A DNA stretch of 64,000 nt from Eledone cirrhosa (Eukaryota): NCBI GenBank assembly GCA_964016885.1, contig OZ024744.1:68448001-68512000 (forward strand), read 5' to 3'. Below, piece by piece: positions 12,380 through 45,589 of the stretch. The translations under genes were made by a program, and so were the position numbers. Below the pieces are notes generated by a model. The model saw only the letters and a list, made by a program, of their open reading frames with translations. It was not told the DNA's origin and did no database searches. The first letter of the stretch is position 1, and each line of letters begins with the position of its first letter.

Positions 12380-13504
12380 GCTTTCTTTATTAACCACAAG
12401 GGTAAAAGTGCACAATGGCAAGACTAATTTAACAATGAACATATAAAAAATATCAAATAAACTATGCATAAATATAACAAAATATATTCCCCGAAAGGGG
12501 TGGACGACCCCGGGGTGACTCAGGTACCCCACCAATCCTGAACCACCCGGCACTTCTAGGGCACCCAGGGAGAGCACCCCTCTCCTCAAGTTAGCTAGAC
12601 TATAGGCGCATGGTCAGAGTAGGCCCATTGACACGGGCCATTCTCGCCACATTCATCCACCTTTTAGCAAATGTACTGGGGGACACCACTTCTCTCTCCA
12701 CCCTCATCTTCCTTTCCAGGTGAAACTTTAAGAAGTTGATGAGGGATTGGCTGAAGATAAAATTGTCTGTCTTCAGTCCTTTTAATCTGGTCCACCATAT
12801 AACCTCTTTCGCAACCGCCACCAGACAGGAAAATTTCCTGCTCTTCCATACCTAAGGAAGGTGGGGGGTCGATCTTCACTATGGACTCGGCCGATAGCCG
12901 GATTCGTTCCACACGCGGCAGTAGCTGTTCGACATAACTCCACAAGTCAGTAATGCACGGACATTGAACAAGTGCGTGCAGAACGGTTTCGTCGTTCTGT
13001 GCGCATCTTGGGCAGGTCCGTCTGACAGCACTTCTGTGCCTGTAGAGTTTATCCCGAACCGGCAGTGCCCCCCGGTAGCACTGCCAAGCGAGGGATTTCT
13101 GGAAATTGTCCATCGTCCCAGGGTCGAAAGTCCTCCAGTACAGACTGGTCAGTTCCACTTCGCCGAGGCCCAAAGCTTCTTCGAGTGCGTCATCGCACTT
13201 GCCCACCACTAATCCTCTATAGAACTCGAGAGTGAAAGTTCCACTGATCGCATTGCCCGCTTGGTAGAGGGCAGTCAGTGCCTGGCAACATTCCAGGTGG
13301 TAGTCACCCAGTCTTGTTCTCTTCTTGACCCAGGACTGCAGTTCAGTCAAAGAAACGAGCTGCGGAAAGGCCCGTCTGACAAACGGCGACCACACCTGTT
13401 CACCGTTTAGGCAGAATATCTGGAGATGTCGCAGCCTCAACCCATGTCTGCGCATCATTAGCCACGGCATTCCCAGCCCTCCGCGTAGAGGGTGCTGGCA
13501 GCAG
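12380..13504 (-). mobile_element. Tx1-clade LINE copy A, 5'-truncated (ORF2 C-terminus plus 3'UTR)
   Basis: zf-RVT-type CPRC..ETVLHALVQC; closely similar to copy B; AATAAA near the 3' end; (AAT)n on both sides. Confidence 0.92.
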
Positions 13505-14064
13505 ATAATAATAATATATATGTGTGTGTGTATTTATTTCATCAATCTCGTAATGATGACAGACGCATTTGGTTTCGGCCTTTTTAGAACATGGAACGTA
13601 AAAGACCATTAGTGAACACCGCGATGCATTTTGTCCGCCACTTAAATGATTCTGTTCATCCACTACATAAAATAAAGAAACATGAAGCCAAGTTAATTGC
13701 ACAAGATGGCTACAAGAATAACTCATTCAATTCTCAGACAAAACGTAATAAAAGATCCAAACGAACAAAAGAGAAAAAATATATACTGAAACGTAACCCG
13801 CTTAATCAGCGATGGACAATTTCTTCAGAAGGTGGTCGACCTAATTCACAAAGAAAAGTTCAAGGATTACCAAATATAAATTTGTTTTAATTGCAGTATG
13901 GAACTCAATGTGTATGTAACTCCTGAAGAAATCGTAGAGGAGCCGTAATGACATACAGCATTTCATGGGTATTTTTACCACCTGGGGGAGCCCATCTCCT
14001 TTCCATAGCATGTGAGAGAGACAGGGGTGAATTGAGGAGGAGATATAGAGGAAGAATCGACTCC

Positions 14065-15860: not shown

Positions 15861-15894
<34 letters not shown>

Positions 15895-16172
15895 TATGAT
15901 TTCATTTATTGGGCACAAGGGCTGACATATAGGGGACAATACAAAAGATTGGGACAGTGGGGTTTTACAGAAAAATCGAGTAAACAATATGAATAAACAA
16001 AGTAACAATAACAAAGTAACAATAAAGTAACAAGAAAATTACAACAAGAAAAAATTCCCCAATAGGGGGGATGACCACCTAGGGTTCGCTCAGGTACGCC
16101 ACCAGTCCTGAACGACCCGACGCTTCGAGAGCACCCTGGAAGGGCACCCCTCTCCTCTTCAAATTTACCTAC

Positions 16173-19100
16173 CTACAGCCGCATGACCAGAGTAGGCCCA
16201 CTCACACGGGCCATTCTCGCCACATTCACCCACCTTTCAGCAAATGTACTGAGGGGCAGCACTTCTCTCTCCACCCTCACCTTCCTTTCCAAGTGAAACT
16301 TGAAAAAGTTGATGAGGGATTGGCCGAAGATAAAATTGTCTGTCTTCAGTCCTTTCAATCTCGTCCACCATACAACCTCTTTCGCTACTGCCACCAGACA
16401 AGGGAAAATTGCCTGCCCTTCCTGGCCAAAAGAAGGCGGCGGGTCGATCTTCACTATGGACTCGGCCGATAGCCGGATCCGTTCTACACGCGACAACAGC
16501 TGTTCAACATAAGTCCACAAATCAGTAATGCACGGACACTGGACGAGTGCGTGCAGAACGGTTTCGTCGCTCTGCGCGCATCTCGGACATGTCCGTCTGA
16601 CAGCACTTACCGTGCCTGTAGAATTTATCCCGAACCGGCAGTGCCCCCCCCCCCCCCCGTAGCACTGCCAAGCGAGGGATTTTTGGAAATTATCCATCTC
16701 CCCGGCTCGAAAGTCCTCCAGTACAGACTGGTTAGTTCGACTTCGTTGACTCCCAGAGCCTCTTCGAGTGCGTCATCGCACTTGCCCATCACTAATCCTC
16801 TATAGAACTCGAGAGTGGAAGTTACACTGACCGTATTGACCGCCTGGTAGAGGGCAGTGAGTGCCTGGCAACATTCCAGATGCCAGTCACCCAGTCTCGG
16901 TCTCTTCTTGAACCAGGACTGCAGCTCAGTCAAAGAAACGAACTGCGGAAAGGCCCGTCTGACAAACGGCGACCACACCTGTTCTCCGTTTAGGCAGAAT
17001 ATCTGGAGATGCCGCAGCCTCAGCGCGTGCCTGCGCATCATTAGCCACGACATGCCCAGCCCTCCACGTAGAGGGTGCTGGCAGCAGATGGACCGCCTCA
17101 CCAGCGGAACCTGACCCCTCCACAAGAATTTGAAGAGGAACCGCTCCAAGATGGCGAGGCGCGAACGGGGCAAGGGACGACAGTCAGACGGTAGTATATG
17201 ACGGACGCGATGTACGCGTTCGCCACCTCCGCCCGACCTTTCAGTGATAGCTTCATCCCAGCCCATTTCTGGGTGAGACTGACTACCCTGCCCGTCACCT
17301 CGTCCCAATTCTTATCCACCTGGAGGTCTGGCCCGAACCAAACCCCTAGCAACTTTACCGGTCCGTCCGTCCAGCGCCTAACGACGCTGTTGGACGGCAT
17401 GGACTTGCCTCTCCAGGTGCCGAGTTGCAAGCCTACTGACTTTTTCGGGTTAAGGTTTGCTCCCGTCAACCTTTCATAATCCTCCAATAAGTTACCGACC
17501 ACCACGATTTCTGAGGTGTCCGACACCATCACGGTGATGTCGTCCGCATAAGCCGACACAGCCTTTCCGCGTCCCTGTTTGAGCTGGATGCCCTGCAACA
17601 GCTCCAGCTTCCGCAGTAAAGGCTCGCGAGTCATTACGTACAGAAGGGAGGAGAGAGGGCACCCTTGACGGACCGATCGGGAGACCTGAAACGGTTCCGA
17701 GAGGTGGCCATTAATTTTGACCACCGAGCAGGTGCCGCTGTGCATTGCAGTGATCCAGCTTCTGAAGACGGGGCCGAAGCCAGCCGCCTTGAGGACAGCC
17801 TCCAGGTACCGATGGTCGACCCTATAGAATGCTTTCGATTGATCTAAATTGATCTGAGTCCCACCGAAGCCAGGTTTTCACCCTACCCTCTCTATGATGT
17901 ATCGCATTAGGTGGAGGTTGTCGTGTATAGACCTGGTTGGGATTGCGCAAGTTTGCGCCTCCCCAACCAAATCCCCGACGACAAGCGCCAACCTCTTCGC
18001 TAATACCCTGGCCAAAATCTTAAACTCTGTGTTGAGCAGAGTTATGGGTCTGAAATTGTCTAATGTGTCCCTCTTGTTCTCGTCTTTCCTTATCAGCGTC
18101 ACTACGCCCCGGCTCACAGAACTGGGAATACTCCCGTTTTGCTGCCAGTTGCAGTAGAGGGCTTCGAGGAGATTGGAGAACAAGTCTGGCATATTTACGT
18201 AAAGCTCGTAGGGCAGACCATCCAAACCGGGTGACTTGCGCCTCATGAAGCCTACAAGGGCATCCTGAATCTCGGCTGAAGTAATTGGCCTTTCGCAGCG
18301 CCCAGCGTCAGCCGTCGAGAGTTGCAGCAAGCCATCGAGGTAGGGACTGAAGTCCGCCACCATCTCTGACTCGCCACTTCCCCCGAACAACCGAGCAAAA
18401 TGTTGGCGAAAGGCCTCACACATCCTCTTGGAATCGCTCAGCTCGAGCCCGTCTCGGTCCGTCAAAGACCGAATCGTGGTGTTATTACCACGCTGCGCCT
18501 CTGCCACGCGGGCCCATTGAACAGCTTTGGTTCCCTCGTTTCTCAGAGCACGCGCCTTAGCTCTGACAATGCAACCTTCGTGTTTCGCATTGAAGAAATG
18601 GTCTAATGCCATTCTGGCCGCTAGCACATCAGTTGCAATGCCACTACCAATAGCCTCGTCTAACTTATCTACCAACTCTCCCTCCTTTCTATTTTTCTCT
18701 AATGCTACTTCTTTGCTAAACTCTATCGACATTACTCTAATCTCTCTTTTGAGAGCCCCCCACCATCTATTGTTGACGACTCCCCCTGTCAACTTTTTCT
18801 TAACTAAATTGTTGACCTGGTCCCTGTAAGCCTTACGTGCCGGAAATGACATGTTTAGCTTCCAGTAACCAGGTCCTAACCTACGTGTCTTATCTAGGTC
18901 GACCATACAGATCACAAACTTGTGATCTGAATAGGCGACCGTTTCAAAACGTGGACAGCTTACACTATTTCTGTCTATTTTCCTAATGAATATCCTGTCT
19001 ATATACGATCTAGATTACCCTATGCCGTTAGCCCAGGTCCACACTGGCGCATTAGGGAAATCTAGTCGGTACCTGTCAGACAGTTGGAACTGGCTGATCA

Positions 19101-19601
19101 GGTTCTTGAGGCTTTTGCACCCCCCGCTCCTATTGGATACTCCCACACAGTCCCAGCGTGCGTCTAAGATGCCGTTCCAGTCCCCCGCTAACAGTAAAGG
19201 GCGAGACGTATCCAGAAAGGCTTCCAGGCGTTTAAAGAAGTCCGACCGTCCTGCCCCAGTAGGAGAATAGACGGCCACCAGTCTAAAGGCACCACCTTCA
19301 TTATTGTTCACGTCCAGGACCACCAACTTCCCGTCCGGGTCCCGGAAGATCGACCTTACCTCGAGATCCAGGCCTTTCCTAAACAGCATTGCCACCCCGC
19401 CTCCCATTCCCGGCTGGCTAACAGATGCAAAGATCTGATAGTCGTCGAAAATGGGGGCTAGTGCGCGCGTGTCGGAAAAATGGTCTCGCTGACTGCAATT
19501 ACATCCATTTCTATAGACCTGAGGTCGTTGAGCAGGTGACCCTGCTTCCAGGACGATCCCAGGCCTCGAACATTTAAACATCCTACTCTTAATACGGTCA
19601 T
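16173..19601 (-). pseudogene. Tx1-B ORF2 (APE endonuclease + reverse transcriptase + CCHC), frameshifted
   Basis: MTVLRVGCLNVRGL, GDWN, SDH, GPGYWKLN, KSPGLDGLP, NFRPITLLN, QGCPLS, YADD, CPRC..H..C spread over several frames. Confidence 0.93.
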
Positions 19602-19632
19602 GTTAGCAGGTTAAACAGAGAGAGAGGAAGGT

Positions 19633-21602
19633 TTACTTACCTTCCGGGCTCTTGTGAAGGTCGGGTTGTTCGACTTCCATAGTTAGTGGAGTTTGGAACC
19701 CCTTTAAAAGTCTTGAAGTAGGTTTTACGTTCGGGGTTCCCACGTCCCGAGGAAAGCTGTCTCGTATTTCTTTGAATATGTCGAGCGACATTCGCACCAG
19801 AATCAAATCTTCCGGCACGCGAAATGTGCTTGATTTAAACATTTCCCCCTCTTTTTGTATATTTTCGCTTCGTGCTATGAGGGCCATCAGTTCCTTGTTG
19901 GTCCTCCTGACGAGCACGAAGTTTTGTATGTTTTGTTGATGTGATTTTATTTGTTTGCGTGACTGTGGTGGTGATGGATTTGGTGGTGTTGTTTCGGTTG
20001 TATCTATGTTTGTTGTGAGTGCGATGTCTGTGGTTTCAGATGTTTGTGTGTATATTTGTTCTTGCGTCTGTTTCAGTTGTTTGCGTTTGGGGGATTCTGG
20101 TGATGGTGATGGTGGTGTTGATGTTATTGGAGAGATGTTTGCGTGGGTGGTGTCTGCGTTTTTTTTTATTGTGGGTGCTTTTGTGCTTTGTTGAGTTTTT
20201 TTTTTCTTTTTGTGTTTCCTTTTTTGTATTTTGGGGGATTTGGGATTTCCCTCATCTTCACTACTGGTAGATGAGGGGTCTGTGTCTGTAAGTGTGTTTG
20301 TATGTATGTTTAAGGTTTTATTGGTGTGTGTATTTTTGGGGGGGAGGGGGGAATTTGACAGCTTTCCTCGTTTTCCCCCTGGGTGGTCAATGTTGGTGGT
20401 GTTTTTTCTATTGGTGTTGTTGTTGGTGGTTTTGCCGATGCAGGTGTTGGTTGTGGTCCCGCCCCGGCGTCGGCAGCAGTGGAGCCTTTCGACCCCTTGC
20501 CTCTTTCAGCAGTTGAGGGCAGAAGGCTGGCAAATGGGTTTTTCCCCCACAAACAAAACACTGCGGTCTTTTGCCTTCGGTCATAATGTGAATGACAGTC
20601 CCATTCTGAAGTCGGATATGGTCTGGGATTGTCTTCACATTCTCGGGCCTGATCTGGAGAAGGATCTCCAGGTCAACCCCGGACCAGTCCTCTCTGGCCG
20701 TTCTGGTCACTTCTATAGGGACTGTATCCGTCCCCTCCACAATCACACATCCCAGAAGCCACCGCATGTCAAGTCCTGGTGGGATTCTGGGAATGCGGAG
20801 ACGGGTCGTTCTTTTTTCCATGTGGGAGGGGTACATTATGACCTTGCTGGTTTTGCAAGGAGTCATGGCGTGTTTCATCGCGAGCGCTTCTGACTTGAAC
20901 AACACCGAAATGGTGCCGTACTGTCTGCCCCTCTCTATGTACTGGGTGTCTTCTCTGATGCACCTCAGCGCGACTTCGATATCTTCTTGTGGGATTAACG
21001 CTGCCTTTTTGGTCTGTGCTGAGATGCATCTATAATGCACCGTTTTGCGCTCCACTGCCTCAATAGCTTCTACCGGGACAGTTAAGTTGGCCCAAGTTTG
21101 CTCTTGCTTGATGAGCTTCCATGCCTGGGCCAACTTTTCATCTTTGTTTGAGAGGTCCATGTTGAAGCATGGCCTCTTTTTTGCTGCTGCCGCAGCAAAA
21201 GTAGTCTTGTTTTCGTTGGGGATGTTGTTGACGTTGTTCTTGTTGGTGTTGTTGTTAGCACTGTCGCTGTTATCATTGTTGTCTTTGCTGCCACCGTTGT
21301 TCTCGGTGCAGCTGGTATTGTTGCTATTGGTGTTGTCGCTATTTGTTTTCATGTTAGTGGTGTTGATATTGTTGTTGTATTTGTTATTTTTTTTTTTGTT
21401 ATCTGTATTTTCGTTGTCGCTGTTACTGTCATTTTTTTTTCAAATTAGAGTTCTTATTGGTATCATTGGTGTCTTTGTTTACCTTGTTTGTGGTGGTGTT
21501 TGTGTTATCAATGTGTGTTAATTTCGCTATAGCGCTCCTCTCAACTTCTACGTCGTTGTCGCACGACAGCCGACATATCGCTGGGGGACGTGGCTCAGCC
21601 AT
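19633..21602 (-). pseudogene. Tx1-B ORF1 (Asn-rich N-terminus, RRM-like region, zinc knuckle), frameshifted
   Basis: CFVCGGKTHLPAFC (CX2CX4HX4C); the terminal frame ends ..PEGK*. Confidence 0.85.
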
Positions 21603-21808
21603 GTTTTTTTTTCTTCGTAAATTTTTTAACATGTAAAGAAAAGTTAAAATATTTGGGCCAAGAGGCCCAAATATTATACTTTCCCCTTCACGGGGCAAAG
21701 TCTAAGGGCTTATATCCCTTACACAACAAGAAATATTTAACAACAAATAATTTAAACAGGCAAATAAAGCGACTTACTGTGAGCGAGCAAAATACGTCCG
21801 CTTAGACC

Positions 21809-21841
<33 letters not shown>

Positions 21842-22144
21842 TTCTTTATTGGCCACAAGGGCTGACATCAATAAAAACATTACAGACGGCACAGGACGGT
21901 ACAGGAGGGTACGATGTGGGTTTTGTGCGTGTAAATATTTTTATTATTTATAAAAGAATAGAAAAAAAAAGGACATAGAAACATATATATATATAAACAA
22001 TAAAAATGAAAATTGAAACAAGGAAAAATTCCCCAATAGGGGGGGAAACCTCCGAGGGTTACTCGTGGCGAAAACCACACAAAAGACCACGGCCACCCTG
22101 ACCACCAGGGCAAGCGACCTCTCTCAATGTTTCCATCTCTCAAA

Positions 22145-25100
22145 CTACAGACGTATATTCAGAGCGGTCCATTTCACTCGGACCATTCTCGCTACATTCA
22201 CCCACCTTTCAACAAACTTGCTAGAGGACAGCACTTGCCTCTCCACCCTGATTTACCTCTTCAAGTGAAACTTGAAAAGGTTAATTAGGGATTCGCCGAA
22301 GAGGAAAGTGTCTGTCTTAACCCTTTTAACCTTGTCCACCACACAATCTCTTTCGCCATGGCCATCAGTCAGATGAAACCCGCCTGCCCTTCCTCCTCGA
22401 AGGAAGACGTCGAGACCATCTGCACAATGGACTCAGACGATAACCGGATCAGTCCTAACGCGACAGCAACTGTTCGACATAGCTCCACAAGTCAGCAATG
22501 CTCGGACACTGAACGAATGCGTGCACGACGGTTTCGTTGCTCTGCACGCATTTCGGACAGGCTCGGCTGACAGCATTTCCGTGCCTGTAGTGCTTATCTC
22601 GAACCGGCAACGCTCCCCGGTAGCACAGCTAGGTCAGGGATTTTTGGAAGTTATCCATAGGCCCTGGGCTGAAAGTTCTCCGGAAGAGAGCAAACAGCTG
22701 ATCTTCTTCGACGCCCAGGATCTCTCCGAGAACGTCGTCACTCTTCCCCTCCACTAGTCCTTTATAGAACGCCGAGGTGGATGTTCGACCGATACTGGTG
22801 CCCAGCTGGCAGAGGGCAGTGAACGCCTGGAGACATTCCAGTTTCCAAGCGCTATCAAGGAGACGAGCTGTGGGAAAACGTGCCTGGCGAACGACGACCA
22901 CACCTGTTCACCGTCAAGGAAGCACCAGAGGTGTCGCAGCCTCAGCGCATATTTGCGCATTATCAGCCATGGCATGACCAGTGCTCCACGCAACGGGTGT
23001 TGACAGCAGATGGATCGTCTGACCATGGGAGCGCGTCCCTTCCACAAAAAGCGGAAGGGAGGCGCTCCATTTTAGTGAGAGCTGGGCCGGGGCAAGGGAC
23101 AACGGTGAGGCGGTAGCAGATGACGGATGCGATGTACGCATTCTCCACCTCCGCCCGGCCTTTAAGGGACAGCTTCCTCTCGGCCTATTTCTGGGTCAAG
23201 GAGGCCACCTTGCTCGTCACCTGGTTCCAGTTTTTCTCCATCTGGAGGTCCGGTCCGAACCAGACCCCGAGCAATTTAACCGGACCGTCCGTCCAACGCC
23301 CCATGATGCTGTCGGACAGCATGGACTTGCCTCTCCAGGTGCCGAGCTGCAAGCCCACCGACTTTTCCTGCTTTATCTTTGCTCCTGTCACTGCTTCGTA
23401 TTCCTTGAGAGCGATGCCGAGCATCTGGACGTGTCTGGTGCTCGACACCACCACGGTGACGTCGTCGGCGTAGGCCGACTCGGATTTCCCGCATCCTAGT
23501 TCGCGTGGGACGCCCCTCATCGCCCCCAGTTTGTGCAGTTACGGCTCGAGAGCCAATACGTACAAGAGGGACGAGAGGGGGAATCCCTGGCGGACCGAGC
23601 GCATGATGCTGAACCGCTGCGACAGGTGACTGTTGACCCTCGCAATCGAGCAGATGTCGCTGTACATCGCAGCGATCCAACCCCTGAAAACGGGCCCGAA
23701 ACCAGCTGCCTCGAGGACCGTCGCCAGGTAACGATGGTCGACCCTATCGAATGCTTTGGATTAATCCAAGTTGATCAGGGCCCCACCCGTGCCAGGTTCC
23801 TTAACCACCCTCTCTATGATGTATCGCATGAGGTGGAGGTTGTCGTGTATGGATCTGTCCGGAATGGCGCATGTATGCGCCTCTCCCACCAGACCCTTCA
23901 CGAAAAGCGCTAACCTCGTTGCTAACACCTTGACCAAAATCTTGAACCCTGCCTTTAGCAGGGTTATGGGCCTGAAATTATCGATAACATCCCGCTTGTT
24001 CGGGTCTTTTCTCAGCGGCGCCTCCGCTCCCCGGCTCACAAAACTGGGAATGCTCCCGTTCTGCTGCCAGTTGCAGTAGACGTCTGCCAAGAGGTCACCG
24101 AACAAGTCTGGCATAAATGCATATAGCTTGTAGGGCAGACCATCAACACTGTGCTGCGGTCGTCGAGAGACGAGGCAGTCTGTCGAGGTATGTATTGAAG
24201 TCCATACACCGATCCGGCCCGCCGCTGCTCCCGAACAGTTCAGCAAAGTGCTGCTGAAAAGCTTCGCACATCTCGGGTTCGAGCAACACGCGCCCGTTTT
24301 GATCAGATAAAGACCGAATTGTGGCTTTGTTGCCACGTCGTGCCTCTGCCACCCGGGCCCATTGGACGGCTTTTGTCCCCGCGTGTTTCAGAGCACGCTC
24401 TCTAGCCCTGACAATGCAGCCTTCGTGTTTTGCGTTGAAGAATTGGTCGACTGACAATCTTGCCGCAAGCACGTCGTTTGCGATGCCTGTCCTAAACGCC
24501 TCTTCTAGCTTTCTGATTAGCTCTCCCTCTACTCTATTTTCCTCTTTCACTAGTCCTTTGCTAAACCTAATCGACTCTACTTTAATTGCCCTTTTCAGGG
24601 CGAACCACCACCTGTTGTTTACGACCGCTCTCCTCAACGCCCGCTTAACTAATACGCTAATCCAGTCTCTGTAGGCTTTGCGCGCCGGGAAAGACACGTT
24701 CAGCTTCTAGTAAACGGGTCCTTGTCTGTGCAGTCGACTATTTTAAATTGTGGACAACCTATACTAGCCTTATTTAGTTCTCTGCAGAATACCCTATCGA
24801 GATACGATCTGGATGACCCGATACGGTTTGTCCATGTCCACATTGGCACATTCGGATGATCCAGTCGATACCTGTCAGACAGTGCAAAACGTCTGAGCAA
24901 GTTGGTGAGGCTCTTGCACCCTCCTCCCCTATCCACTAGCCCCACACAATCCCAGGGTGCATCCAAGATACCGTTCCAGTCGCCCACTAACACTAAAGAG
25001 CGGGACGTTCGAAGAAAGGTCTCTAGACGTCTAAAGAAATCTGGCCGTCCTGTCCCTGTCGGAGCATAGACGGCTACTAGCCTGAAAGCGTTGCCTTCGG

Positions 25101-25401
25101 TGCCGCTTACGTCCAACACCACCGACTTACTTTCTGGGTCCAGGAAGATGGTCCGTATGGCGAGACCCAAGCCTTTCCGAAACAACACAGCCACTCCGCC
25201 CCCCGCTCCCGGACAGCTCGGAGATGCGTACACCTCGTAACTGTCGAAGATCGGTGCGAAAGCTTGCGTTTCGGAGATTCTCGTCTCACTGATGGCCACC
25301 ACATCTATGTTTAGTGACCTGAGATCGTTAAGCAAGTGACCCTGCTTCCAAACCGAGCGCAAGCCACGCACGTTTACACTTCCGATCCTGAATACGTCCA
25401 T
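22145..25401 (-). pseudogene. Tx1-C ORF2 (APE-RT), disrupted
   Basis: MDVFRIGSVNVRGL, GDWN, YLDR, NFRPITLL, YADD; contains deletions and frameshifts. Confidence 0.9.
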
Positions 25402-25433
25402 GTTGGGTGCGGAACGGGGCAAGTGAGAAAGGA

Positions 25434-27251
25434 TCACTTACCTTGATCGTCTGGTGAAGGGACCGTTGAATCGTCCCTTCGGCTGGTCGTCGGCTCTTCT
25501 GTGAGTATATCGGAGTATACTCTCCGGTTGAGTGCCCCCCTCCTAGGTCTCTGAAATCACCAAAATTTCATTTTAATGTTTGTGTATTGTTTCTGTGATA
25601 TTCTTACCAGTCTTATGTTCGTTGGTGTTTTGATTGGTGCTGGTATTATGTTGCCGTGCTGTGAAATGTCTGCGTGTTCAATTATGTAAGTCATTAGTTT
25701 CTTGTGTGTATTTATTGCTGTGCATTTCTATTTCTGGGGGTGGTGTGTGGTTCTGCTATTTTCTTGTTGTTGCTGCGTGTGTGTGTTTTGTTGTGTTTGC
25801 GAGGTTGGTGTTTGTGGTGGTGTTGCTGAAGGTGTTGTTGTTGTTGGCGGTGGGGTTGCCGCCGGTGGTGATGGTGGTGCTAGTGTGGGTGGTGATGGTG
25901 TTGGTGGTGTTGCTGCTGTAAGTCTCTTTGCAGTAGCCTTTGCCCTTTTTTCATTTCTTCCCTCCCTTTTCGAAGGCTACGATGCGCTGCTTCTGCGTTT
26001 GTGCCTTCTTGCGACCTTTTGTCATCCCTCTCCCACCTCACACTCCATGTCCGATTCTATGAGGTCGGGGAGGGGTTCCATCTCCACTCTTTCACTTGTT
26101 GTTGTTTGTGATGGTTGCAGTGGAGTCGCTGTTGCATCTGCAGTTGGTATTACTGTTGTTGTTGTTAATACTTCCACTGCTGGTGTTGTTCTTGATTTCC
26201 GTGGCGTGGGTATGGGTGCCACGGACCTATCCTTCCTGGTTGCCGCTTGTCCTGTTGCTGGTAGCCGTGGAGCCGGTTTCGGAAGGAGGGTTTTTTTTTC
26301 TTTTCTCAGGGCCTTCTCATTGCAGAAAGCCCTGAGGTGAGTCTTCGACCCACAGCGAAAGCATTTCGGACGTTTGCCCTCAACACTTATGGGAAGTTGA
26401 GTGCCGTTATCGAAGTCTATCACATCCGGGATAGCTTCGATACACTCCTGGTTGGTTTGAATTAACATCTCAATGGAGGCGCCGACCCAATCTTCTCGTA
26501 CTTTTTTCTGTACTTGCAGTACGGTTGTTTTGTCCTCGTTTCCGACGAGGACAGACGCGGCCAGCCAACAAGGGGCCATCCCGGGGGAGGGGGGACTTGG
26601 GTCAGTTTGACCCTCACAATATTTTGCCCGCAGTAGGAGGGCACTAACACAATTTCCTCGCTCCTTAGGTTCACTAAGGATTCAGCCTTTGCCTCCCGTC
26701 GTGTGGCAAAAAGCACGTCCACGGTGGCACATTTCTTGCCTCGGATGATATGCGTTTTCCGCTGCCACACAGACCCTAAGGCTTTTTGTATTTGAGCCTC
26801 TGTGGCTCTTTCAACCCTACGTGAATTTGTGCTTAGTGTACGGTACGTGACCGGTACAGTGCTGTTGGGTTTCGAAAAATTCTTCGGCTGCCTTGCAGAT
26901 CACTCGGTTACCGGTTTTCGTCCCCATCTTCCTTGCTTCCTGTAATTCCTCATTTGTTATAAGGATGGTTTCCAGGTTCTTTGCGATATCTGCAAACGAG
27001 ATTGGGTTTTCTTTCTTGTTGTTGTTGTTGACGTCAGTGCTGCTGTTACTTTTGTTGTTTCTGCTGGTACTAAGACCACCGCCGCCGCTGTTGCTGTTGA
27101 TGTTGTTGTTGTTGCTAAACTTGTTATTGTTGTTGCCACTGCTGCTGTTGTTGTTTATGCTGCTTCTGATGTTGTTGCAGCTGCTACTAGTATTTTCCTC
27201 GCCACTGTTGTTGATGCTGCTGCTGTTATTACGGCTGCTGCTATTCTTCAT
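25434..27251 (-). pseudogene. Tx1-C ORF1, frameshifted
   Basis: Asn/Ser-rich N-terminus, CFRCGSKTHLRAFC knuckle, ends ..DDQGK*. Confidence 0.82.
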
Positions 27252-27522
27252 GACGTCAGACGAATGAAATGGCTTTCCGTATTTACCGCACACGTCTTTC
27301 GTCGTTGTCGTTGTCGTGGAGAAATGTTCCACGGTACGCGCGTTCTCTTGATGAAGAACGCTAGGAGAAAGTACATTTTTCTTTTTCTTTAGTGGCGTCG
27401 CTTGCGAAAGAGGCGACAGAGGCGAAACCACATTTAGAGAAGGGAGGGAGAGAGACAATCTTTTCTCTGACGTAATGATTACTATACCTTACAGAGCCGA
27501 GCCTCCGTCAACCATGGCATTC

Positions 27523-27568
<46 letters not shown>

Positions 27569-27570
<2 letters not shown>

Positions 27571-28139
27571 GGCTGGAGACATGATGTGATGGGCAGGGTG
27601 ATCCACTGGCACCTATGCAAAGTAAACAATTTACCACATTCTGAGAAGTGGTATGAGCATAAGACAGAGTCGGTGATGGAAAACTATCAGGTGAAGGTGC
27701 TTTGGGATTTTAGGATACAGACGGACAAGAAATTAGAACACAATAGGCCTGACCTGGTGGTTTGGGACAAGGGAAAAAGATCGTGCCTGATTGTGGATGT
27801 GGCCTGCCCATTCGACACGAGAGTGCAAGAAAAGGAGAGGGAGAAAATTAACCGATACCAGGACTTAAAGTGGGAGTTAAAAAGGATTTGGAACTACCAT
27901 GAAATCAAGGTCGTCCCGATTGCCATAGGCGCACTAGGTACTATCTCAAAGAGTTTCCAATGATGGTTAAAGAAGATTAGTCCAGCCTTGCTTTTTGGAA
28001 CACTTCAAAAAGCATGCTTGCTGGGAACAGCAAGAACCCTCCGATACGTCCTGAATATCCGATGCTGCAGGTAGCGGCTTGATATTCATTTCAACAAACT
28101 TTCCAGTTAACTAACATCAATGACTGAGACTGACAGAAC
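27569..28139 (+). mobile_element. R4/Dong-clade RLE non-LTR element, 5'-truncated
   Basis: RHD..WYEH..VLWDF..RPDLVV..IVDVACP..EK..YQDL..VVPIAIGALG..LQKACLLGTARTLR (PD-D/ExK restriction-like endonuclease); (TAA)n on both sides. Confidence 0.88.
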
Positions 28140-28592: not shown

Positions 28593-29319
28593 CTCCAAAA
28601 CCTTCTCAATTATGAATAAATACAAAAAAAAAAAGAAACAAAACAACCCATGAAAATGTAACGTGATGTCTATATAAATAAAAGCCCAATCGTGTCCGCC
28701 CGTCCGTGTGTCAGTCCGTTCGTGAGATGAATGAGTTCAAACGAAAGAAGATCGATAGTAAAAATTCTACGTCGAAAAAAATATCAAACAGCATTTCAAT
28801 TTTTGCACAAAGCTCTGTGTGAGTTTCTGTGTGTGTGTGTGTGTGTGTGTGTGCATGGGTGCGTCTGCGCGTGTGTGCGTGTGTGCGTCTGGGTGTGTGT
28901 GCGTCTGGGTGTGTGTGTGCCTGTGTGTGTGTGTGTGAATGCATGAATGCGTAAAAGGAAGGAAGGGGAACGGTGTAGAAATCTATGCTCTCTGTGAGTG
29001 TATGTGTCTCCAAAGGAGAATGAACTGAATATGTCTAGTATTTTAATAAAAATAAGCATTAGTACCATTGACATGGTAAACATAGAAGACATAGTTTTAG
29101 TGTTGTTCATATGTAACTTAATAACAGATACATTAACTATTTACCTTCTCTTACACAACTCTCTTCATACTCCTTCACACACATACACTTCTCTCCCGTT
29201 ACTTATTGCACCTTCCCAGTACAATATCTGAGCTAAACTCTTAACCGAAGGTCACACATATCATTAACATTATCAACTGGATAGTTTACTACATGATATA
29301 TACCCCCTTACAAATCACA

Positions 29320-29601
29320 TCCACCAACAACACCAACACCGCCACCACAACCAACACCAACACCACCTCCACCACCATCAACAACAACACTGCCACCACT
29401 ACCAAACCACCACAACCACCATTACCACCATGTCAATCAAACAACACCTCCACCAACACATCCACCAACAACACCAACACCACCACCACCACCACCACCA
29501 TCACCAGCAACAACACCTCCAACACCACCACCATTATCAACACCACCAGCACCACCACCAACACCAACAACACCACCACCACCACCACCACCACCACCAC
29601 C

Positions 29602-29656
<55 letters not shown>

Positions 29657-29664
29657 CCACCACC

Positions 29665-29710
<46 letters not shown>

Positions 29711-30035
29711 CCACCACTACCACCAACAACAACATCACCACCACCACCACCACCACCACCAACAGCAACATCACTACCACCACCACCACCACCAACAATA
29801 ACAACAACAACATCACCACCCCACCATCACAAACACCACCACCACCAACAACATCACCACCACCAACACCAACAACAACATCACCACTACCACCACCACC
29901 AACAACAACAACATCACCACCACCACGACCACGACCACCACCACCACCACCACCAACAACAACAACACCACCACCAACAACAACAACAACAACACCACCA
30001 CCACCACCAACAACAACATCACCACCACCACGACC

Positions 30036-30066
<31 letters not shown>

Positions 30067-30440
30067 TCACCACCACCACGACCACCACCACCACCACCAC
30101 CACCACCACGCCCAACAACAACAACAACAACATACCACCACCACCACCTTCCACCACCATCAACAACAACAACATCACCACCACCACCAACAACAACAAC
30201 AACATACCACCACCACCACACCACCACCACCACGAACAACAACAACGACAACAACAACAACACCACCACCACCACCACCACCACCACCATCAACAACAAC
30301 AACAACAACATCACCACCATCACCACCACCACCAACAACAACAACAACATACCACCACCACCACCACCCCCAACAACAACAACAACATCATCACCACCAC
30401 CACAACCACCACAAACACCACCATCAACCACAGCAACACT
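29320..30440. repeat. compound (ACC/AAC)n trinucleotide tract
   Basis: Direct reading of the sequence. Confidence 0.95.
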
Positions 30441-30763
30441 CAACCAAAATTCATTTGACGACAACCCAGCAAACACGACTCGAAATTATCTTAGAAAGTT
30501 CTTTTGAAATGGTTCGACAAACAACGGAAACTGTGACACACATTCATAGAAATAAACAAATAAATAACAACAACAAAAATAGGCAATTATAAGACCCACC
30601 ACCCAAACACACATCCAAACACCAGCCTCCCTCCCTCAAAAAAAAAAAAACCCTATAAACTATTATATAAAACAGCAAAATTAATAATAAAAGTAACGGA
30701 AACTGTGACATGTTAAGAACCAACAAACAAACAAACAAAGGTAGTTATTACAACAACAAACCC

Positions 30764-30985
30764 TCGTCGAGGTTAACTTTGCCTTTCATCCTTACGGGGT
30801 CTATAAAATAAAGTACCAGTAATGTACTGACTAATTGCTGGCCTTGTGCCAAATGTAGAAACAGTTATTAGCACAGTTACGCCGAGGTTAACTTTGCCTT
30901 TCTTCCTTACGGGGGTCGATAAAATAAAGTACCAGTAATGTACTGAGTAATTGCTGGCCTTGTGCCAAAAATAGAAACAGTTATT
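30764..30985 (+). mobile_element. two tandem 5'-truncated SINE copies
   Basis: GAGGTTAACTTTGCCTTTC..GGCCTTGTGCCAAA..AGAAACAGTTATT present twice. Confidence 0.8.
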
Positions 30986-31094
30986 ACAACAACAAACAAC
31001 AAATGCGAAAAGCAAGAGAATAAGTGATTATATAAAACAAAACAACAACAATAACTATAAAAAAAAAAAACAACCAAAATATCATTGACTTTCC

Positions 31095-31453
31095 CCACCA
31101 CCACCACCACCATCACCACCGCCACTACCACGATCGCCAACACTACCACAACCACCATCAACAGCACGCCGACGTCCACCATCACCATCACCACCATCAC
31201 CAGCACTACCAGCACCACCACCACTACCACCACCACCACCATCACCATCACCACAACCACCACAACCACCACCATCACCACAACCACCACCATCACCATC
31301 ACCAGCACTACCAGCACCAGCACCACCACCACCACCACCACCATCACCATCACCATCACCACCATCACCAGCACTACCAGCACCAGCACCACCACCACCA
31401 CCACCATCACCACAACCACAACCACCACCATCACCATCACCAGCACTACCAGC

Positions 31454-31484
<31 letters not shown>

Positions 31485-31624
31485 CCATCACCACCACCAC
31501 AACCACCACAACCACCACCATCACCACAACCACCACCATCACCATCACCAGCACTACCAGCACCAGCACCAGCACCACCACCATCACCATCACCATCACC
31601 ACCATCACCAGCACTACCAGCACC

Positions 31625-40316: not shown

Positions 40317-43300
40317 CTACAGGCTGATATAGAGAGAAGGCCCATTCACTCGGGCCATTCTCACCACTTTCACCCACCTTTCATAAAACTTGCTGGGGTA
40401 CAGCACCTCTCTCTCCACCCTGATTCTTCTTCCAAATTGGTATTTGAAAAAAAAGAATCAGTTGTTGGCCAGAGAGAAAGGTGTCTGACCTCAGCCCTTT
40501 TAACCTTGTCCACCATACAACCTCTTTCGCAATAGCTATCACACAAAAGAAAACCGCCTCACTTTCGTTTTTGAAGGAGAGTGGCGGTTTGATTATGACA
40601 ATGGACTCGGTTTCTTCGTCTCGCACGCACCTCGGACAGATCTTTTTTGCAGGGTCCCTGCCCGGGCGCCCATACCTGTAGAGATTGTCTCGAACTGGTA
40701 GAGCTCCTGGGTAGCACTGCCAGGCCAGGGACTTTTGGAAGTTGTCCATCGGTCCCGGGCGGAAGGTCCTACCGAACAGACTGGCCAGTTCATCTTCCTC
40801 TATGCCTAGAGTTTCACCGAGCGCGTCGTCGCACTTGCTGCGGATCAACCCTCTATAGAATGACGAAGTGGAGTCTCCACTGATCGCCGGGACCGCCTGC
40901 CAGAGGGCTATGAGCGCCTGAGTACATTCGATGTGCCAGTCGCCATTTTTCTCGGTTTTTGCTTGACCCAGGACTTCAGCTCGCTCAGCGAGACGAGTCG
41001 TGGGAAGGCTCGCCTCGCGAACGGGGCCCACACCGGTTGTCCGGTTAGGAAAACGTAGAGATGTCGCAGCCTGAGCGCGTGTTTGCGTGTCGTCAGCCAT
41101 GGCAACCCCAGCCCTCCGTTGGAAGGGTGTTGGCAGCAGATGGATCTTCTCACCAAAGGATCCCGCCTCTTCCAAAGGAATTGGAAGAGCGCGCGCTCCA
41201 TTTTGGTGAGCGTTTTGGCTGGGCAAGGCACGACGGTCAAGCGGTAGTAGATGGCGGACGCTATAAAAGTGTTCGCCACCTCCGCTCGACCTTTCAAGGA
41301 TAGTTTGCACTTCTGGGTGAGTGCAAACACCTTGGCCGTCACCTCGTTCCAATTCTCCTCCACCTGGAGGTCCGGACCAAACCAGACCCCGAGCAGCTTT
41401 ACCGGTCCTTCCGTCCAGCGTCCGACGACGCCATCGGAAGGCATCGGTTTGTCTCTCCACGGTCCGAGTTGCAAACTGATGAACTTGTCCGGTTCAGCTT
41501 CGCTCCTGTGAAACTTTCGTATTCCTTCAGTAAGGTGCCGACTTCCTCGATTTGCGAGGCATTCGACACAATTACTGTCTCGTTGTCGGCGTATGCCGAC
41601 GCCGCTTTCCGCAATCCCGGTTCCAGAGGGATGCCCTGCAATAGCTCCAGCTTCCGCAGTAGTGGCTCGAGAGTCAGTACGTAGAGAAGGGAGGAGAGAG
41701 GGCATCCCTGTCGAATGGATCGCGTGATAGGGAACGGCTCCGAGAGGTAGCCGTTCACCTTGACCCTTGAGCAGATGTTGCTGTTGGGCATTGCAGCAAT
41801 CCAGCCCCTGAACACGGGTCCGAAGCCTGCCGCCCCGAGCACCGCATCCAGGTAACGATGGTCAACCCTATCGAAAGCCTTAGACTGATCCAAGTTGATC
41901 GGGGCCCCACCGAAGCCGGGTTTTCACCCTACCCTCTCTATGATGTATCGCATGAGGTGGAGGTTGTCGTGTATGGACTTGGTCGGGATTGCGCATGTCT
42001 GCGCTTCTCCAACCAAGTTCTCGACGACAAGCGCCAGCCTCTTTGTCAACACCTTGGCCAAAATCTGTAACTCTGTGTTTAGCAGAGTTATGGGCCGGAA
42101 GTTGCCTATGTCATCCCCCTTATTCTCGTCCTTCCTGACTAGTGTGACTACGCCCCCGGTCACAGAACTGGGAATTCTCCCGTTCTGTTGCCAGTTGCAC
42201 TAGACCGCTTCCAGGAGACCGGAGAATAAGTCCGGCATTGCTACGTAAAATTTGTAGGGTAGACCGTCGAGACCTGGAGATTTGTGTTTGCCGCATTGGC
42301 TCAGCGTGTACCCTATCTCAGCGGCTGAAATCCGCTTTTCGCAGAACTTTGTCTCGCTGTCCGAGAGTCGCGGTAGGCCGTCGAGGTATGGACCGAAATC
42401 CATAGACCCTCCCGGCGCACCGCACTGCCCGAACAGTTGAGCAAAGTGCCGCTGAAAGGCCGCACACATCTGCTTCGGCTCACGTATCACGCGTCCGTTT
42501 TGGTCATTCAAAGACCGAATCGTGGACTTGTTGCCACTTTTTGCCTCCGTCACTCGGGCCCAGCTAACAGCTTTGGCTCCCTCGTTTCCCAGAGCACGTA
42601 TTTTGCTTCTGATAACGCAGCCCTCGCGCTTTGCGTCGAAGAACTCGTCCAAGGCCGTTCTCGTTGCTATCACGCTGGCTTAGTGGCCTCTTCTACTTTA
42701 TCTACCAGTTCCTTCTCGGTTCTATTTCTATCTAACGTTAATTCTTTACTAAAAACTAACGAGTCTAATCTAACTGCCCTCTTGAGAGAGTACCACCATC
42801 TGTTGTTGACAATGGCCCCTGTCAAGTGCTGTTTAACTAAAGTGCTAACCCGTCTACTGTAGGCTTTGCATGTCGGTAACGACAAGTTCAGCTTCCAGTA
42901 GCCGGGTCCTTGTCTATGGGTTCTATCAAGGTTGGCCATGCAGGTCACTAGTTTGTGATCTGAATAGGCAACCATGAACATTTGTGGACAGCTTAACATG
43001 TCCCTATCCTTATTTCTAACTAGAACCCTATCTAGGTACTATCTAGATGTTCCGCTACGATTAGTCCACGTCCACAGCGGCACAGTCGGAAAATCTAGTC
43101 GATATCTATCGACCAGGTCAAATCGGTCGATTAACTGTTTGAGGCTGTTACACCCCCCCCCCTTTATCGGGACATGCTCCCACATAATCCCAACGTGCAT
43201 CTAGGATTTCATTCCAGTCCCCCACTAAAAGCAAGGAGCGGGACGTTCCCAGAAAAGTCTCTAGACGTTTGAAGAAGTCTGGCCACGGTGTCCTGGATGG

Positions 43301-43641
43301 GACATATGCTGCCACCAGCCTGAAGGCTCCACCTTCACTACCGTCAACGTCTAGGACCACCAGTCGACCCTCCGGGTCCAGATGTGTTACCGTCTGTGTT
43401 ACGAGGCCCAGGTGTTTTCGCAGCAAAACGGCAACCCCGCCCCCACCCCCCGACCGACAGAGACATGCGTAGATCTCAAAGTCATCGAAGATGGGGCCTA
43501 GCTGTCGCTCGCTGTGGATCCTGGACTCGCAAATGGCTACCATATCCATACTGTGCGACCTAGGTTGTTTAAGAGTTTGCCCTGTTTCCAGGGCATCCCC
43601 AGGCCGCGTACGTTCACATATCCAACTCTTATATTGGCCAT
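40317..43641 (-). pseudogene. Tx1-D ORF2 (APE-RT), disrupted
   Basis: MANIRVGYVNVRGL, GDWN, SDH, GPGYWKLN, KSPGLDGLP, NFRPITLLN, QGCPLS, YADN. Confidence 0.9.
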
Positions 43642-43674
43642 GTTGGTGCTGAAAAGTTAAAAGAGGAAAAGAAA

Positions 43675-45589
43675 TCACTCACCCTTCGTCTCCTGGGGAC
43701 CAGGCTGCACGATTTCCATGGCAGTGTTGGAGGGGTTGTCTGGGTGGGTGGTGGTTTGCGGCGGGGTGGGGACGGAGATGTTTGGTGGAGTAGGGTCTGG
43801 TGGGATGGGGGTGTCTGGGGTGGGGAGACATTTGAGAAGGACGCGGTTAAGTGGTTTCACGCAGGAATTCCCCACATCCTTTTGAAATGTTTCTTTTAGG
43901 GACCTATAAGTTTGTATAGGGACCTTAATCAGTTTTAGGTTTAGTTTTTTGTTATTTTTAATAGAGTGGGCGAAAGTTTTCCCTTCGGTTTTCACCGAAG
44001 GGTTGTTTGTGATGGTCTCCATTAGTGTTTTGTTTTCAGTGTTTATGTAAGTGTAAGTGTAATTTTCTTGTGTTTGTTTTTGTCTGTAGTTCTTGTGTGT
44101 GCTTTCGTTTTGTTGTAGGTATTTTGTTTTCAGGAGGTGGGGGTTTTGTTTGTGATGTTTTTGTTGTTTGTGTTGGTGGTTGTAGGTTTGTGGTAGTGTT
44201 TGCTGGTTTTTTGCTTTTGTGATGTCTTTTCTTTCTTTTCGAGCGATGGGGTTCTCCCTCGTCTTCACTGGGTGTTGGCGAGATAGCCTCATTTGTTGTA
44301 TCGTCTGTGTGATTGGGGAGGGGTATGTCTTGGGGAGCTATTGTGTCAGTATGTGATTTTGCAGTGGTTTTAGGTGGAGTGGGGTTGGGTGGGACTGTGT
44401 TTGTTGTGGTTATTTTTGTGTGTTGGTGTTGTTGTTGTTTTGGTGGTGTTGGTGGTTGTGTTGTTTTGATGGGTGTCGGCAGAAGAGGCTTTTTTTATTC
44501 ATTAATTTAGGACAGGAAGCCCTCAGGTGACCCCTGCTAAAGCAATGGTAACATGAAGGCCGCCTACCATCAACCGAAAAGTTTATGTAGCTGAGTCCGT
44601 CCACGACTACACGTTGTGGGATCATAGCTATTCGCTCTGGGCTCATTTGGACCAGAACTTCAATGCTAGTCCCATTGAATACATCTCTGGGGGACTTTCC
44701 TACTGACAGTATTCTGTCTTCATCAAAATTGATGAAGCCGCACAGTATCCACCATATGTTCACCTTAGGTGTGACACTCGTGATTTTAATCTTTTGTGTC
44801 CTTTTTCCCATGTATGTAGGGAAAAAGGTGTACAGGTTGGATACAATTGGCGACACAGAGTAATTTTGGGCCGTCAATTGATCCTTCATGAGTACCGAAA
44901 TACTCCCAAAAAGTTTGCTTCTTTGAATGAATGCAATATCATTCATTGAATTTTTGAAAACCGGTCAATTTCTTTCTGTGACAATTGGACTGGTTTTCGG
45001 GTAGAATTGGAAACTGTCCTAAAAGCTATCGTTTTGAGAGCAGTTTCCTTGCGAATTTCTACCAGAGAATTGATGCTGAAAGCACCATTTCTTTCGAAAG
45101 TGACATATCTCCTAGCGTCCTTTAAAAGTTGTTCGGTATTTGTTATGTCGAGATATGTCAGTTCCTCCTTTTTTTGAACTGTCTGTGCAAAGGAGATTTT
45201 TTTTTTTTTGTGGAATTATCCGTGTTGGTGGTGTTGTCATTATTGTTGTTATTGTTGTTGTTATTCTTGTTGTCACTGATGTTGATATTATTCGTATTTT
45301 CCTTGGTGTTGGTGTTGTTGTCTTTGATGCTGGTGTTATTGGTGTTGTCTTTATTTTTTTCTTTGTTGTTGTTGTCATTGTTGTTTTTATCATCATTATT
45401 GGTGTTGTTGTTATTTTTGTTGTCATTGAACCGTTTGGTGTCATTTGTGTTGTTTGGATATGAATTTGTTTTTACATTTTCATTTCGTCTTTCCATCTCC
45501 ATAGTATCTAGGGAAGAAGACGATGTTGACTGCAAGCTCTGTAGTCTTACCGCCTCTCCACCACCATTATCGTTGAACGCAGCGTTCAT
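43675..45589 (-). pseudogene. Tx1-D ORF1, frameshifted
   Basis: Asn-rich N-terminus, zinc knuckle, ends ..TKGE*. Confidence 0.82.

Follow-up and report, generated by a model that had tools for sequence, protein, structure and literature searches.

A conserved ORF1-terminal splice donor and a predicted RNA duplex around ORF2 in L1/Tx1-like LINEs of Eledone cirrhosa

The bicistronic RNA of LINEs gives much ORF1p and little ORF2p while an intact template is kept, and how this is achieved is an open question, to judge from the accessible part of a study of ORF2 translation (PMC5972666). Described Tx1-clade elements include Kibi, Koshi and the microsatellite-targeting Tx1 elements of crocodilians (PMC4494074), and L1-Tx1 families are listed for Octopus vulgaris in the part of that account available to us (PMC13282606). 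The LINEs analyzed here resemble Tx1-clade elements, as far as the excerpted description extends, in having two ORFs, an ORF2 of ~1,150 aa with an endonuclease and a reverse transcriptase, and insertions in microsatellites (PMC4494074). They differ in a conserved splice donor, a putative internal splice and a predicted duplex enclosing ORF2, features that do not figure in the available parts of the accounts of Tx1-clade elements (PMC4494074, PMC13282606).

The window, a 64,000-nucleotide stretch of the Eledone cirrhosa contig OZ024744.1, contains the copies designated A, B, C and D (Table 1). Copy C has copy B inserted in its (ATT)n tail. Copy B itself ends in another (ATT)n tail; the copies of its family are ~95% identical, and both of its own ORFs are fragmented. 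The ORF2 domain calls, taken from other copies of its lineage, were PF03372, PF00078 and PF13966, with the endonuclease followed by the reverse transcriptase, and the closest solved structures were those of L1 ORF2p (E about 1e-43). This domain order, together with a separate upstream ORF1, an AATAAA signal, (ATT)n or (CTAT)n tails and no LTRs, places the elements in the L1/Tx1 group; they may belong to the Tx1 clade, the label given by the initial annotation. ORF1, which is 628-654 aa long in intact relatives, gave a weak zf-CCHC match for its CCHC knuckle (E 0.095, under the cut-off). Descriptively, many 5′ boundaries were seen within (CTAT)n/(ATT)n repeats or the tails of other copies.

Table 1. 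Positions of the LINE copies and of their observed and predicted parts in the window
Feature	Positions	Strand	Status
Copy B, L1/Tx1-like two-ORF LINE, full-length but decayed	15862..21808	minus	
ORF1 of copy B, frameshifted	19633..21602	minus	
Putative 5′ splice donor of copy B, AAG/GTAAGT, GT 19640-19639, overlapping the ORF1 stop	19635..19643	minus	
Duplex 5′ arm of copy B: final 35 nt of ORF1, donor, pyrimidine-rich spacer, opening ORF2 codons	19582..19675	minus	predicted
ORF2 of copy B, broken: endonuclease, reverse transcriptase, zf-RVT	16173..19601	minus	
TAG stop of copy B ORF2, candidate 3′ splice acceptor	16173..16175	minus	
Duplex 3′ arm of copy B: final ORF2 codons, stop, purine-rich run, 3′UTR hairpin	16104..16196	minus	predicted
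AATAAA polyadenylation signal ahead of the copy B tail	15905..15910	minus	
Putative donor of copy C, GT 25441-25440, phase 1	25435..25444	minus	
ORF2 of copy C, TAG stop, own cognate duplex arms	22145..25401	minus	
Copy D, putative donor (GT 43682-43681) through ORF2 TAG	40317..43682	minus	
Copy A, 5′-truncated, 3′ arm only, TAG 12602-12600	12380..13506	minus	

The end of ORF1 in copy B reads GAAG/GTAAGTAA on the minus strand, as the initial annotation had stated, with the GT in phase 1 and the ORF1 stop TAA at 19635-19633. Scored against the 5′ splice site consensus, this site matched at 8 or more of 9 positions in all 13 lineages, versus 17 of 1084 ORF2 control windows (1.6%), and it agrees with the consensus 5′ splice site of a spliceosomal GT-AG intron. 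The donor was retained across TAA, TGA and TAG stops and across a change of ORF1 phase, being in phase 2 in families D, D2, E, F, G, H and I, and the phase has switched just once or twice on the tree; copy D of the window only looks phase 1 because one base is missing relative to its family. Both this conservation and a historical joint located exactly at the donor (described below) support the view that ORF1 ends in a genuine 5′ splice site, whereas the accompanying claim that splicing to the ORF2 TAG is a universal rule failed.

At the other end of the putative intron, ORF2 of copy B does end CTGTAG at 16173, followed by GT AGG TAA, giving an interval of 3468 nt (19640-16173). All 27 copies examined in the B cluster carry a TAG stop; the motifs of copy B are the family norm, and copy C conforms to the same three-part pattern of donor, TAG and early downstream stop. 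The proposed recurrence of this signature in the other copies stood for the donor but fell for the strict combination of TAG and stop, which was found in only 7 of the 13 lineages: if the TAG serves as acceptor, B, B2, A, C, D2, G and H meet a stop no more than 2 codons on, while D, F, F2 and I read on for 27-50 codons. Nor is a TAG end of ORF2 universal, since family E has TAA in all 11 copies, and the donor phase varies. In E and CE, where the stop is TAA, only GAG or AAG lies close by; the other lineages have a TAG with 60-75% pyrimidine upstream. A YAG acceptor with a pyrimidine tract was not found in every family (13 lineages; absent from E and CE). Sharing of the TAG is by itself weak evidence because four-fold sites are still ~70% identical between clades (291/418). 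The putative splice at the end of ORF2 remains tenable under a looser rule: if the first AG within the last 20 nt of ORF2 served as the acceptor, 12 of 13 lineages would reach an ORF1 stop within 4 codons, F2 being the lineage with no in-frame solution. Families D, D2 and G have a CAG 4 nt upstream of the ORF2 stop, and three of the first-AG acceptors are GAG (in E, CE and I, which offer GAG as their sole first AG). GAG acceptors are rare.

The suggestion that splicing seeds ORF1-only, HAL1-like copies was not borne out, given that the predicted junction was present in 0 copies of families B, F and G compared with 248, 482 and 1240 unspliced copies, respectively, the F and G junction controls being laxer than the tests (23 versus 28 fixed bases; one mismatch per 30 permitted). 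Amplified ORF1-only copies were likewise not found in these three families, the sole related finding being two single cross-family deletion chimeras. With regard to other uses of the B donor, the 22 copies that have a non-G at +1 all carried a point mutation or a 1-nt deletion ahead of the usual spacer, and the 44 non-standard continuations seen after the C donor included no spliced product. Fifteen internal deletions were rejected as splice products, being mostly short microhomology joints; one of them begins at a donor-like site, at a joint that is not an exact GT-AG. Sequence searches of protein collections with spliced ORF1 C-termini gave no match, the spliced end was in 0 of 11 profile matches from a protein database (a result that is uninformative about splicing), and metagenome scans returned nothing closer than distant elements with 25-36% identity.

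There is, nevertheless, one historical joint at the donor. The amplified chimeric family CE consists of the ORF1 of family C, ending exactly at the C donor, fused to a CAG of family E, with ~95% identity to C upstream and 96% to E downstream of the joint. In E the joint falls right after one of two YAGs within the last 150 exon nt, so that CE keeps both E arms of the duplex described next together. The joint has a 2-nt AG microhomology, and its E side is a cryptic site, not an ORF2 end.

In every family examined, the tract from the last part of ORF1 through the spacer into ORF2 is complementary to the tract where ORF2 ends and the 3′UTR begins, and this complementarity is family-specific. The arms are predicted to pair into a stem (~75 pairs in copy B, 40-100 bp across families), with ORF2 as both the enclosed loop and the body of the putative intron. 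The initial annotation did not include this duplex, which covers the donor and acceptor sites. The cognate 5′ arm for copy A was recovered from other copies, and the G pairing was drawn from full-length copies, replacing one from a chimeric locus. Cognate arms had a mean duplex energy of -60.1 versus -46.8 kcal/mol for swapped arms (as good in 0 of 200,000 permutations), or -29.1 versus -14.4 after subtraction of local folding (0 of 100,000), and spacer length correlated with the 3′UTR purine segment (Spearman 0.76, n=11; Pearson 0.92 leaving out G and I), although the permutation and correlation tests overstate independence because the families are related. Of 80 distant loci, 33 kept an intact ORF2 with its flanks, and the start/stop pair was the best window in 0 of these 33. 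None of 984 ORF2 control windows bettered the cognate arms, composition-preserving shuffles of the arms gave z of -3.2 to -8.9, sense beat antisense in 9 of 12 comparisons, and the pairing reaches into coding sequence on both sides. In one fixed register with no gaps, the A of the ORF2 AUG pairs at a point 2 nt ahead of the ORF2 stop in 11 of 11 cases. Whether paired, as in some families, or looped out, as in others, the donor hexamer keeps to the consensus. When natural sequences of 3.6-3.9 kb were folded blind, the stem was within the global MFE in 9 of 13; it was missing from the folds of window copy B, B2, H and I. The 3′UTR hairpin within the 3′ arm is predicted to compete against pairing of the arms.

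Other analyses of the arms were negative or equivocal. Column-wise covariation in blind alignments was 0.49 at paired positions versus 0.39-0.51 in slid controls, a separate family-shuffle test gave p 0.13, and G, with the most matches of all families, had a weaker stem than I (-23.8 versus -38.8). The 25 longest of 225 pairs from a DNA inverted-repeat finder did not include the arms, whose pairing needs G-U pairs and bulges, and Rfam gave a single chance-level match, far under the gathering score and outside the arms. As for an A-to-I editing footprint of double-stranded RNA, TGG replaced TAG in 0 of 80 copies, and the idea of amber editing was dropped. A>G was 0.0134 in the arms versus 0.0086 in ORF2, with T>C likewise up in the arms, and 20 B loci chosen by a 5′ anchor had no editing excess in the 3′ arms. 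Boundaries of 5′ truncation lay within 30 nt upstream of the ORF2 stop in 3 of 92 cases, too few for a verdict on clustering.

An RNA clasp is predicted to close ORF2 into a 3.4-kb loop and likely decides whether ORF2 is kept or spliced out. In this model U1 would bind the donor while the donor is being transcribed, and the 3′ arm, emerging 3.4 kb later, could invade the pyrimidine-rich spacer and mask the donor together with the acceptor region and the AUG of ORF2. RNA in the clasped state would avoid splicing and serve as a full-length, low-ORF2 template for retrotransposition, while unclasped RNA would be cut at the donor and joined, in most lineages, to an AG that coincides with or closely precedes the ORF2 stop, which would leave ORF1 with a near-native end. 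That donor and stem together act as a gate between full-length and spliced ORF1-only RNA is, in our estimate, an evenly balanced proposition; a dual role of U1 has a precedent in the accessible part of PMC5580714, and against the gate stand the 0 spliced copies found for families B, F and G and the position of the CE joint away from an ORF2 end. The fuller proposal is more tentative and falls somewhat short of even: that the co-evolving clasp is a splicing switch, with clasped RNA full-length and ORF2 muted and unclasped RNA ORF1-only, and that the same donor spliced the C ORF1 onto the E engine to create the chimeric family.

An unlikely but still serious alternative is that the donor is a U1 landing site and nothing else, guarding the nascent RNA from premature polyadenylation and retaining incomplete transcripts until ORF2 has been completed, when the stem displaces U1 and hides the AUG of ORF2, with little or no ORF1-only mRNA. 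This would suit a donor kept in all lineages when the acceptor is not, the 0 spliced against ~1,970 unspliced copies (B, F and G) and, from the portion of the source at hand, the ability of U1 to prevent premature termination in the plant element EVD (PMC5580714). The TAG could also be explained by pairing, its T and G being predicted partners of the sequence around the ORF2 start, which would offer another reason for this stop, and the TAA family E has T in place of C at the spacer position opposite. However, such a shield leaves unaccounted for the phase-matched early stop under the first-AG rule (12 of 13 lineages), the pyrimidine enrichment upstream of the TAGs and the location of the CE joint at the donor, and AATAAA is scarce within the ORF2 of five intact-length copies. 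We regard as improbable that the stem is a device of translation or replication, which by bringing the ORF2 AUG beside the ORF2 stop steers reinitiation or ribosome recycling, or guides the reverse transcriptase, the donor-like motif being a mere part of the stem: although the AUG-to-stop register is invariant and ORF2 reinitiation in SART1 requires RNA structure according to the accessible text (PMC5972666), the hexamer is consensus whether paired or looped out and the CE joint is exactly on it. An ordinary GT-AG intron, in which the TAG of ORF2 itself closes the intron in every family and splicing gives rise to ORF1-only copies, fits B, B2, A, C, D2, G and H exactly, but as a universal rule it is refuted by TAA in E and CE and by the long read-through in D, F, F2 and I; with junction-bearing ORF1-only copies not found in B, F and G, and the complementary arms left unexplained, we think it very doubtful. 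Finally, trivial pairing of pyrimidine and purine runs with motifs inherited from one ancestor is scarcely credible, for despite the low complexity of the runs, the relatedness of the families and the equivocal covariation, it is largely refuted by the shuffle z-scores and the cognate-versus-swapped arm tests; the two arms also vary in length together, and their pairing continues into the coding sequence at either side.

The candidate control element is a short, explicitly defined one, of which about a dozen families supply natural variants that have co-evolved, and swap-and-rescue experiments are therefore ready-made. If the clasp does act as proposed, splicing would be a route to the ORF1 replacement events of LINE evolution. 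Retroviral splice-donor hairpins attenuate the 5′ splice site, and cyclisation of viral genomes joins distant ends; those hairpins are local and cyclisation pairs genome ends, whereas the predicted stem encloses one internal ORF. We found no description in the literature of an ORF2-enclosing clasp that masks a LINE splice donor.

The nearest parallels each share one part of the proposed arrangement. In SART1 and L1, RNA structure by the ORF1/ORF2 boundary governs ORF2 translation, and SART1 is described, in the text available, as having an overlapping stop-start with a downstream structure (PMC5972666); here, by contrast, the partner strand lies 3.4 kb off, across the ORF2 stop. The predicted splice product would be similar to HAL1, an ORF1-only LINE derivative in the part of the source available (PMC5753468), although, unlike HAL1, ORF1-only copies with the predicted junction were not found here in B, F and G. 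The human L1 SpIREs (PMC5860796) and SpORF2 (PMC2896524), as excerpted, likewise show that LINE RNA can have functional splice sites and that spliced RNA can be retrotransposed, as CE may have been. Those splices, in the same excerpts, lie in the 5′UTR and ORF1 or give ORF2-only RNA, and SpIREs are dead ends (PMC5860796, PMC2896524), whereas CE grew into an amplified family and the product predicted here is ORF1-only. Closest in logic is the shGAG RNA of the plant Ty1/Copia element EVD, in which, going by the accessible portion of the report, a conserved U1 site adjoins the structural gene, enables an RNA for the structural protein only and protects the full-length RNA (PMC5580714). EVD is an LTR element that, in the same portion, uses a small intron and premature termination (PMC5580714), while in the LINEs described here the putative intron is the whole of ORF2, the 3′ tail would be retained and a predicted long-range stem lies over the sites; if the proposed model is true, the subgenomic-RNA and U1 logic of copia elements would extend to LINEs.

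The ORF1 end of these LINEs carries a conserved splice donor within a co-evolving predicted long-range stem, a new and directly testable regulatory feature. The material comprised 160 kb surrounding the window and 84 targeted stretches, from which 13 partly overlapping lineages (A, B, B2, C, D, D2, E, CE, F, F2, G, H and I; G and I have a common 5' part, E and CE a common 3' part) were each represented by one natural copy, and most lineage tests were run on 10 to 12 of these. Several orphan 3' ends lacking a matched 5' part were excluded from the arm-pair tests. In a tree built from the final 450 nt of ORF2, B/B2/A (98/97) and a clade of F/D/M/D2/H/G/I (100/100) were supported, and C, E and J had no settled placement.

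The motifs that the initial annotation had read at both ends of ORF2 in copy B were borne out, and their positions are collected in the table. In this copy both ORFs are disrupted, its family is ~95% identical between copies, and the family's ORF1 end gave 248 exact-anchor matches in a genome search. The element belongs to a LINE type already known. Its ORF2 (read from copies other than B) encodes endonuclease, reverse transcriptase and zf-RVT domains, and L1 ORF2p is the closest of the solved structures. Among named proteins the nearest come from Argonauta and Octopus, which makes an octopod the likely host. The label Tx1 is that of the annotation and is putative. Palindromes similar to that in the 5'UTR of B were seen in A and B2, and the 3'UTRs of all families hold a small CCCC..GGGG hairpin with a U-rich tract and AATAAA after it, which may serve ORF2p as a recognition signal.

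Features of copy B and its surroundings (window coordinates)
Feature	Position	Strand	Remark
Copy B element	about 21808 to (ATT)n tail near 15862	minus	inserted within copy C's tail
Palindromic 5'UTR motif	21660-21680		just 5' of ORF1 start
Predicted duplex	19675-19582 with 16196-16104		~75 pairs
Donor GT	19640-19639	minus	preceded by GAAG
ORF1 stop	19635-19633	minus	
ORF2 ATG	19601	minus	from sequence reading
End of ORF2 TAG	16173	minus	followed by GT AGG TAA
CCCC..GGGG hairpin of the 3'UTR	16060-16075		equivalents in all families
Window copies A, B, C and D	12380-45400	minus	
Head-to-tail array	15862-27900		also L163-L202, L283-L302
Repetitive, strongly strand-skewed region	29001-32100		long open frames overlapping on both strands

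All four copies in the window lie on the minus strand, as do 12 of the 13 element ends scored across 224 kb (the window plus 160 kb of flanks), a bias that may reflect a one-strand piRNA cluster or an intron of a gene on the plus strand. The arrays arise where the (ATT)n/(CTAT)n tails of elements host other elements, the repeat setting being ATT for the B and E group and CTAT for the D, F and G group.

Scored against the familiar 5' splice donor consensus, the ORF1 end matched at least 8 of the 9 positions in all 13 lineages versus 17 of 1084 ORF2-internal windows, and GTRRGT was present in 125 of 156 ORF2-start contexts, a set that includes 22 loci chosen for a mutated donor. A, B, B2 and C have a phase-1 donor; in the remaining lineages it is phase 2, and there the ORF1 stop (TAA, TGA or TAG) falls inside the donor motif. 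Since the motif outlasts this change of frame, it is conserved for itself and not for the encoded residues. An Argonauta ORF1 prediction (P0130) has a C-terminal EGKS, the reading expected from a GGTAAGT donor, and this protein end hints at donor conservation outside this genome. A distant metagenome element (L205:455-531) has GTAAGT at its ORF1 end, a TAA ORF2 stop and weak start/stop pairing (-7.4 kcal/mol net).

The pyrimidine-rich spacer 3' of the donor is complementary to a purine-rich stretch 3' of the ORF2 stop, and the pairing of these two arms reaches into coding sequence at both ends, with 40-99 predicted pairs in lineages other than B. Across 12 lineages, which are related families, cognate arms had a mean energy of -60.1 kcal/mol versus -46.8 when swapped (-29.1 versus -14.4 with local folding subtracted); none of 200,000 permutations was as good, no window among 984 in ORF2 gave better pairing, and composition-keeping shuffles gave z between -3.2 and -8.9. 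Spacer and 3'UTR segment vary together in length (Spearman 0.76, n=11). In blind folds of the whole region (3.6-3.9 kb) the stem was recovered in 9 of 13 copies and was missing in the window's copy B and in B2, H and I. The duplex keeps one fixed register: in 11 of 11, the ORF2 AUG has its A paired 2 nt 5' of the ORF2 stop, and the T and G of TAG lie opposite the ORF2 start context. Weighing against the duplex, column-level covariation in the arms was no better than in slid controls, the family-level test of the inner register (p 0.13) is uninformative because that register is almost invariant, and the families are related. No comparable stem was found in the 33 distant metagenome elements (from 80) having an intact ORF2 and flanks. 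We consider the predicted stem itself very probably real. G and I have ORF1 and spacer in common and differ at their 3' ends (L295 versus L290); the predicted stem of I is much stronger (-38.8 versus -23.8 kcal/mol), yet the fetched copies mostly have G-type ends.

We favour, at about even confidence, the reading that the predicted stem is a gate between unspliced RNA and a spliced ORF1-only message. U1 would bind the donor first, given that transcription reaches the donor 3.4 kb ahead of the strand it pairs with. The 3' arm, which by itself is predicted to fold into local hairpins, would next invade the spacer, so that all or part of the donor is covered along with the acceptor region and the AUG of ORF2. 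Clasped RNA would stay unspliced with ORF2 muted, and unclasped RNA would be spliced to yield the ORF1-only message. The main rival, which we consider less likely than the gate, retains the stem and U1 and supposes no real spliced product.

The initial annotation had proposed that a three-part signature of donor, ORF2 TAG as acceptor and early downstream stop recurs among the copies. Of 95 ORF2-end contexts, 90 were anchorable. Were the TAG used as acceptor, ORF1 would end at most 2 codons on in seven lineages (B, B2, A, C, D2, G and H), and another four (D, F, F2 and I) would read through for 27-50 codons. As a universal rule the signature fails, the E cluster ending ORF2 in TAA in 11 of 11, an ending that the annotation itself had named as counting against its proposal. 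Just 5' of the ORF2 stop, phase-2 families mostly have an AG that occupies codon positions 1-2: CAG for D2, G and most copies of D, AAG for F, and GAG for E, CE and I. Such an AG would share the frame of this stop; phase-1 families are without one. A looser rule taking the first AG gives a stop within four codons in 12 of 13 lineages, F2 being the exception. Its better fit than the strict TAG rule is suggestive only, since the phase shifted on one or two occasions and an AG in that position is bound to be in frame.

ORF1-plus-3'UTR copies with the exact junction, which the annotation had thought splicing might seed, numbered 0 versus 248 unspliced in family B in a genome-wide junction search, and 0 versus 482 in F and 0 versus 1240 in G, where both controls were less strict. 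L1-type proteins show cis-preference (PMC5860796), which would hide RNA lacking ORF2; the missing copies thus argue against seeding of ORF1-only families more than against splicing. The putative splice itself is plausible in part, and unproven. Two single cross-family chimeras (L183:8714-9100 and L284:709-1100) lack almost all of ORF2, retain both arms and rejoin 16 and 11 nt 5' of another family's ORF2 stop. Copies only about 5% diverged (L004-L059) often lack internal stretches of 60-2,000 nt, and these deletions have short microhomologies (15 examined).

The chimeric family CE, ~95% C upstream and 96% E downstream, switches exactly at C's donor boundary, directly 3' of a CAG in E's ORF1 tail that lies 43 nt 5' of E's donor. 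Genome-wide, the C exon end had 44 non-standard continuations, every one a variant of this joint, and CE has amplified (L173:- near oriented position 3424; also L015, L146, L157, L164, L170, L175 and L323-L352). CE looks like a splice-made ORF1 swap. It is most simply read as a GT-AG splice between tandem elements or as a template jump onto a released 5' exon, and either route requires the spliceosome to cut at the donor. A chance template switch at a 2-nt AG microhomology may also account for the joint, which is one event in which no ORF2-end acceptor was used.

A search of largely open full-text literature found no account, for Tx1 or cephalopod LINEs, of a duplex enclosing ORF2 or of splicing to an ORF1-only RNA. 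In the retroelement EVD, one U1 site does both jobs, giving a structural-protein-only RNA and shielding the full-length one (PMC5580714).
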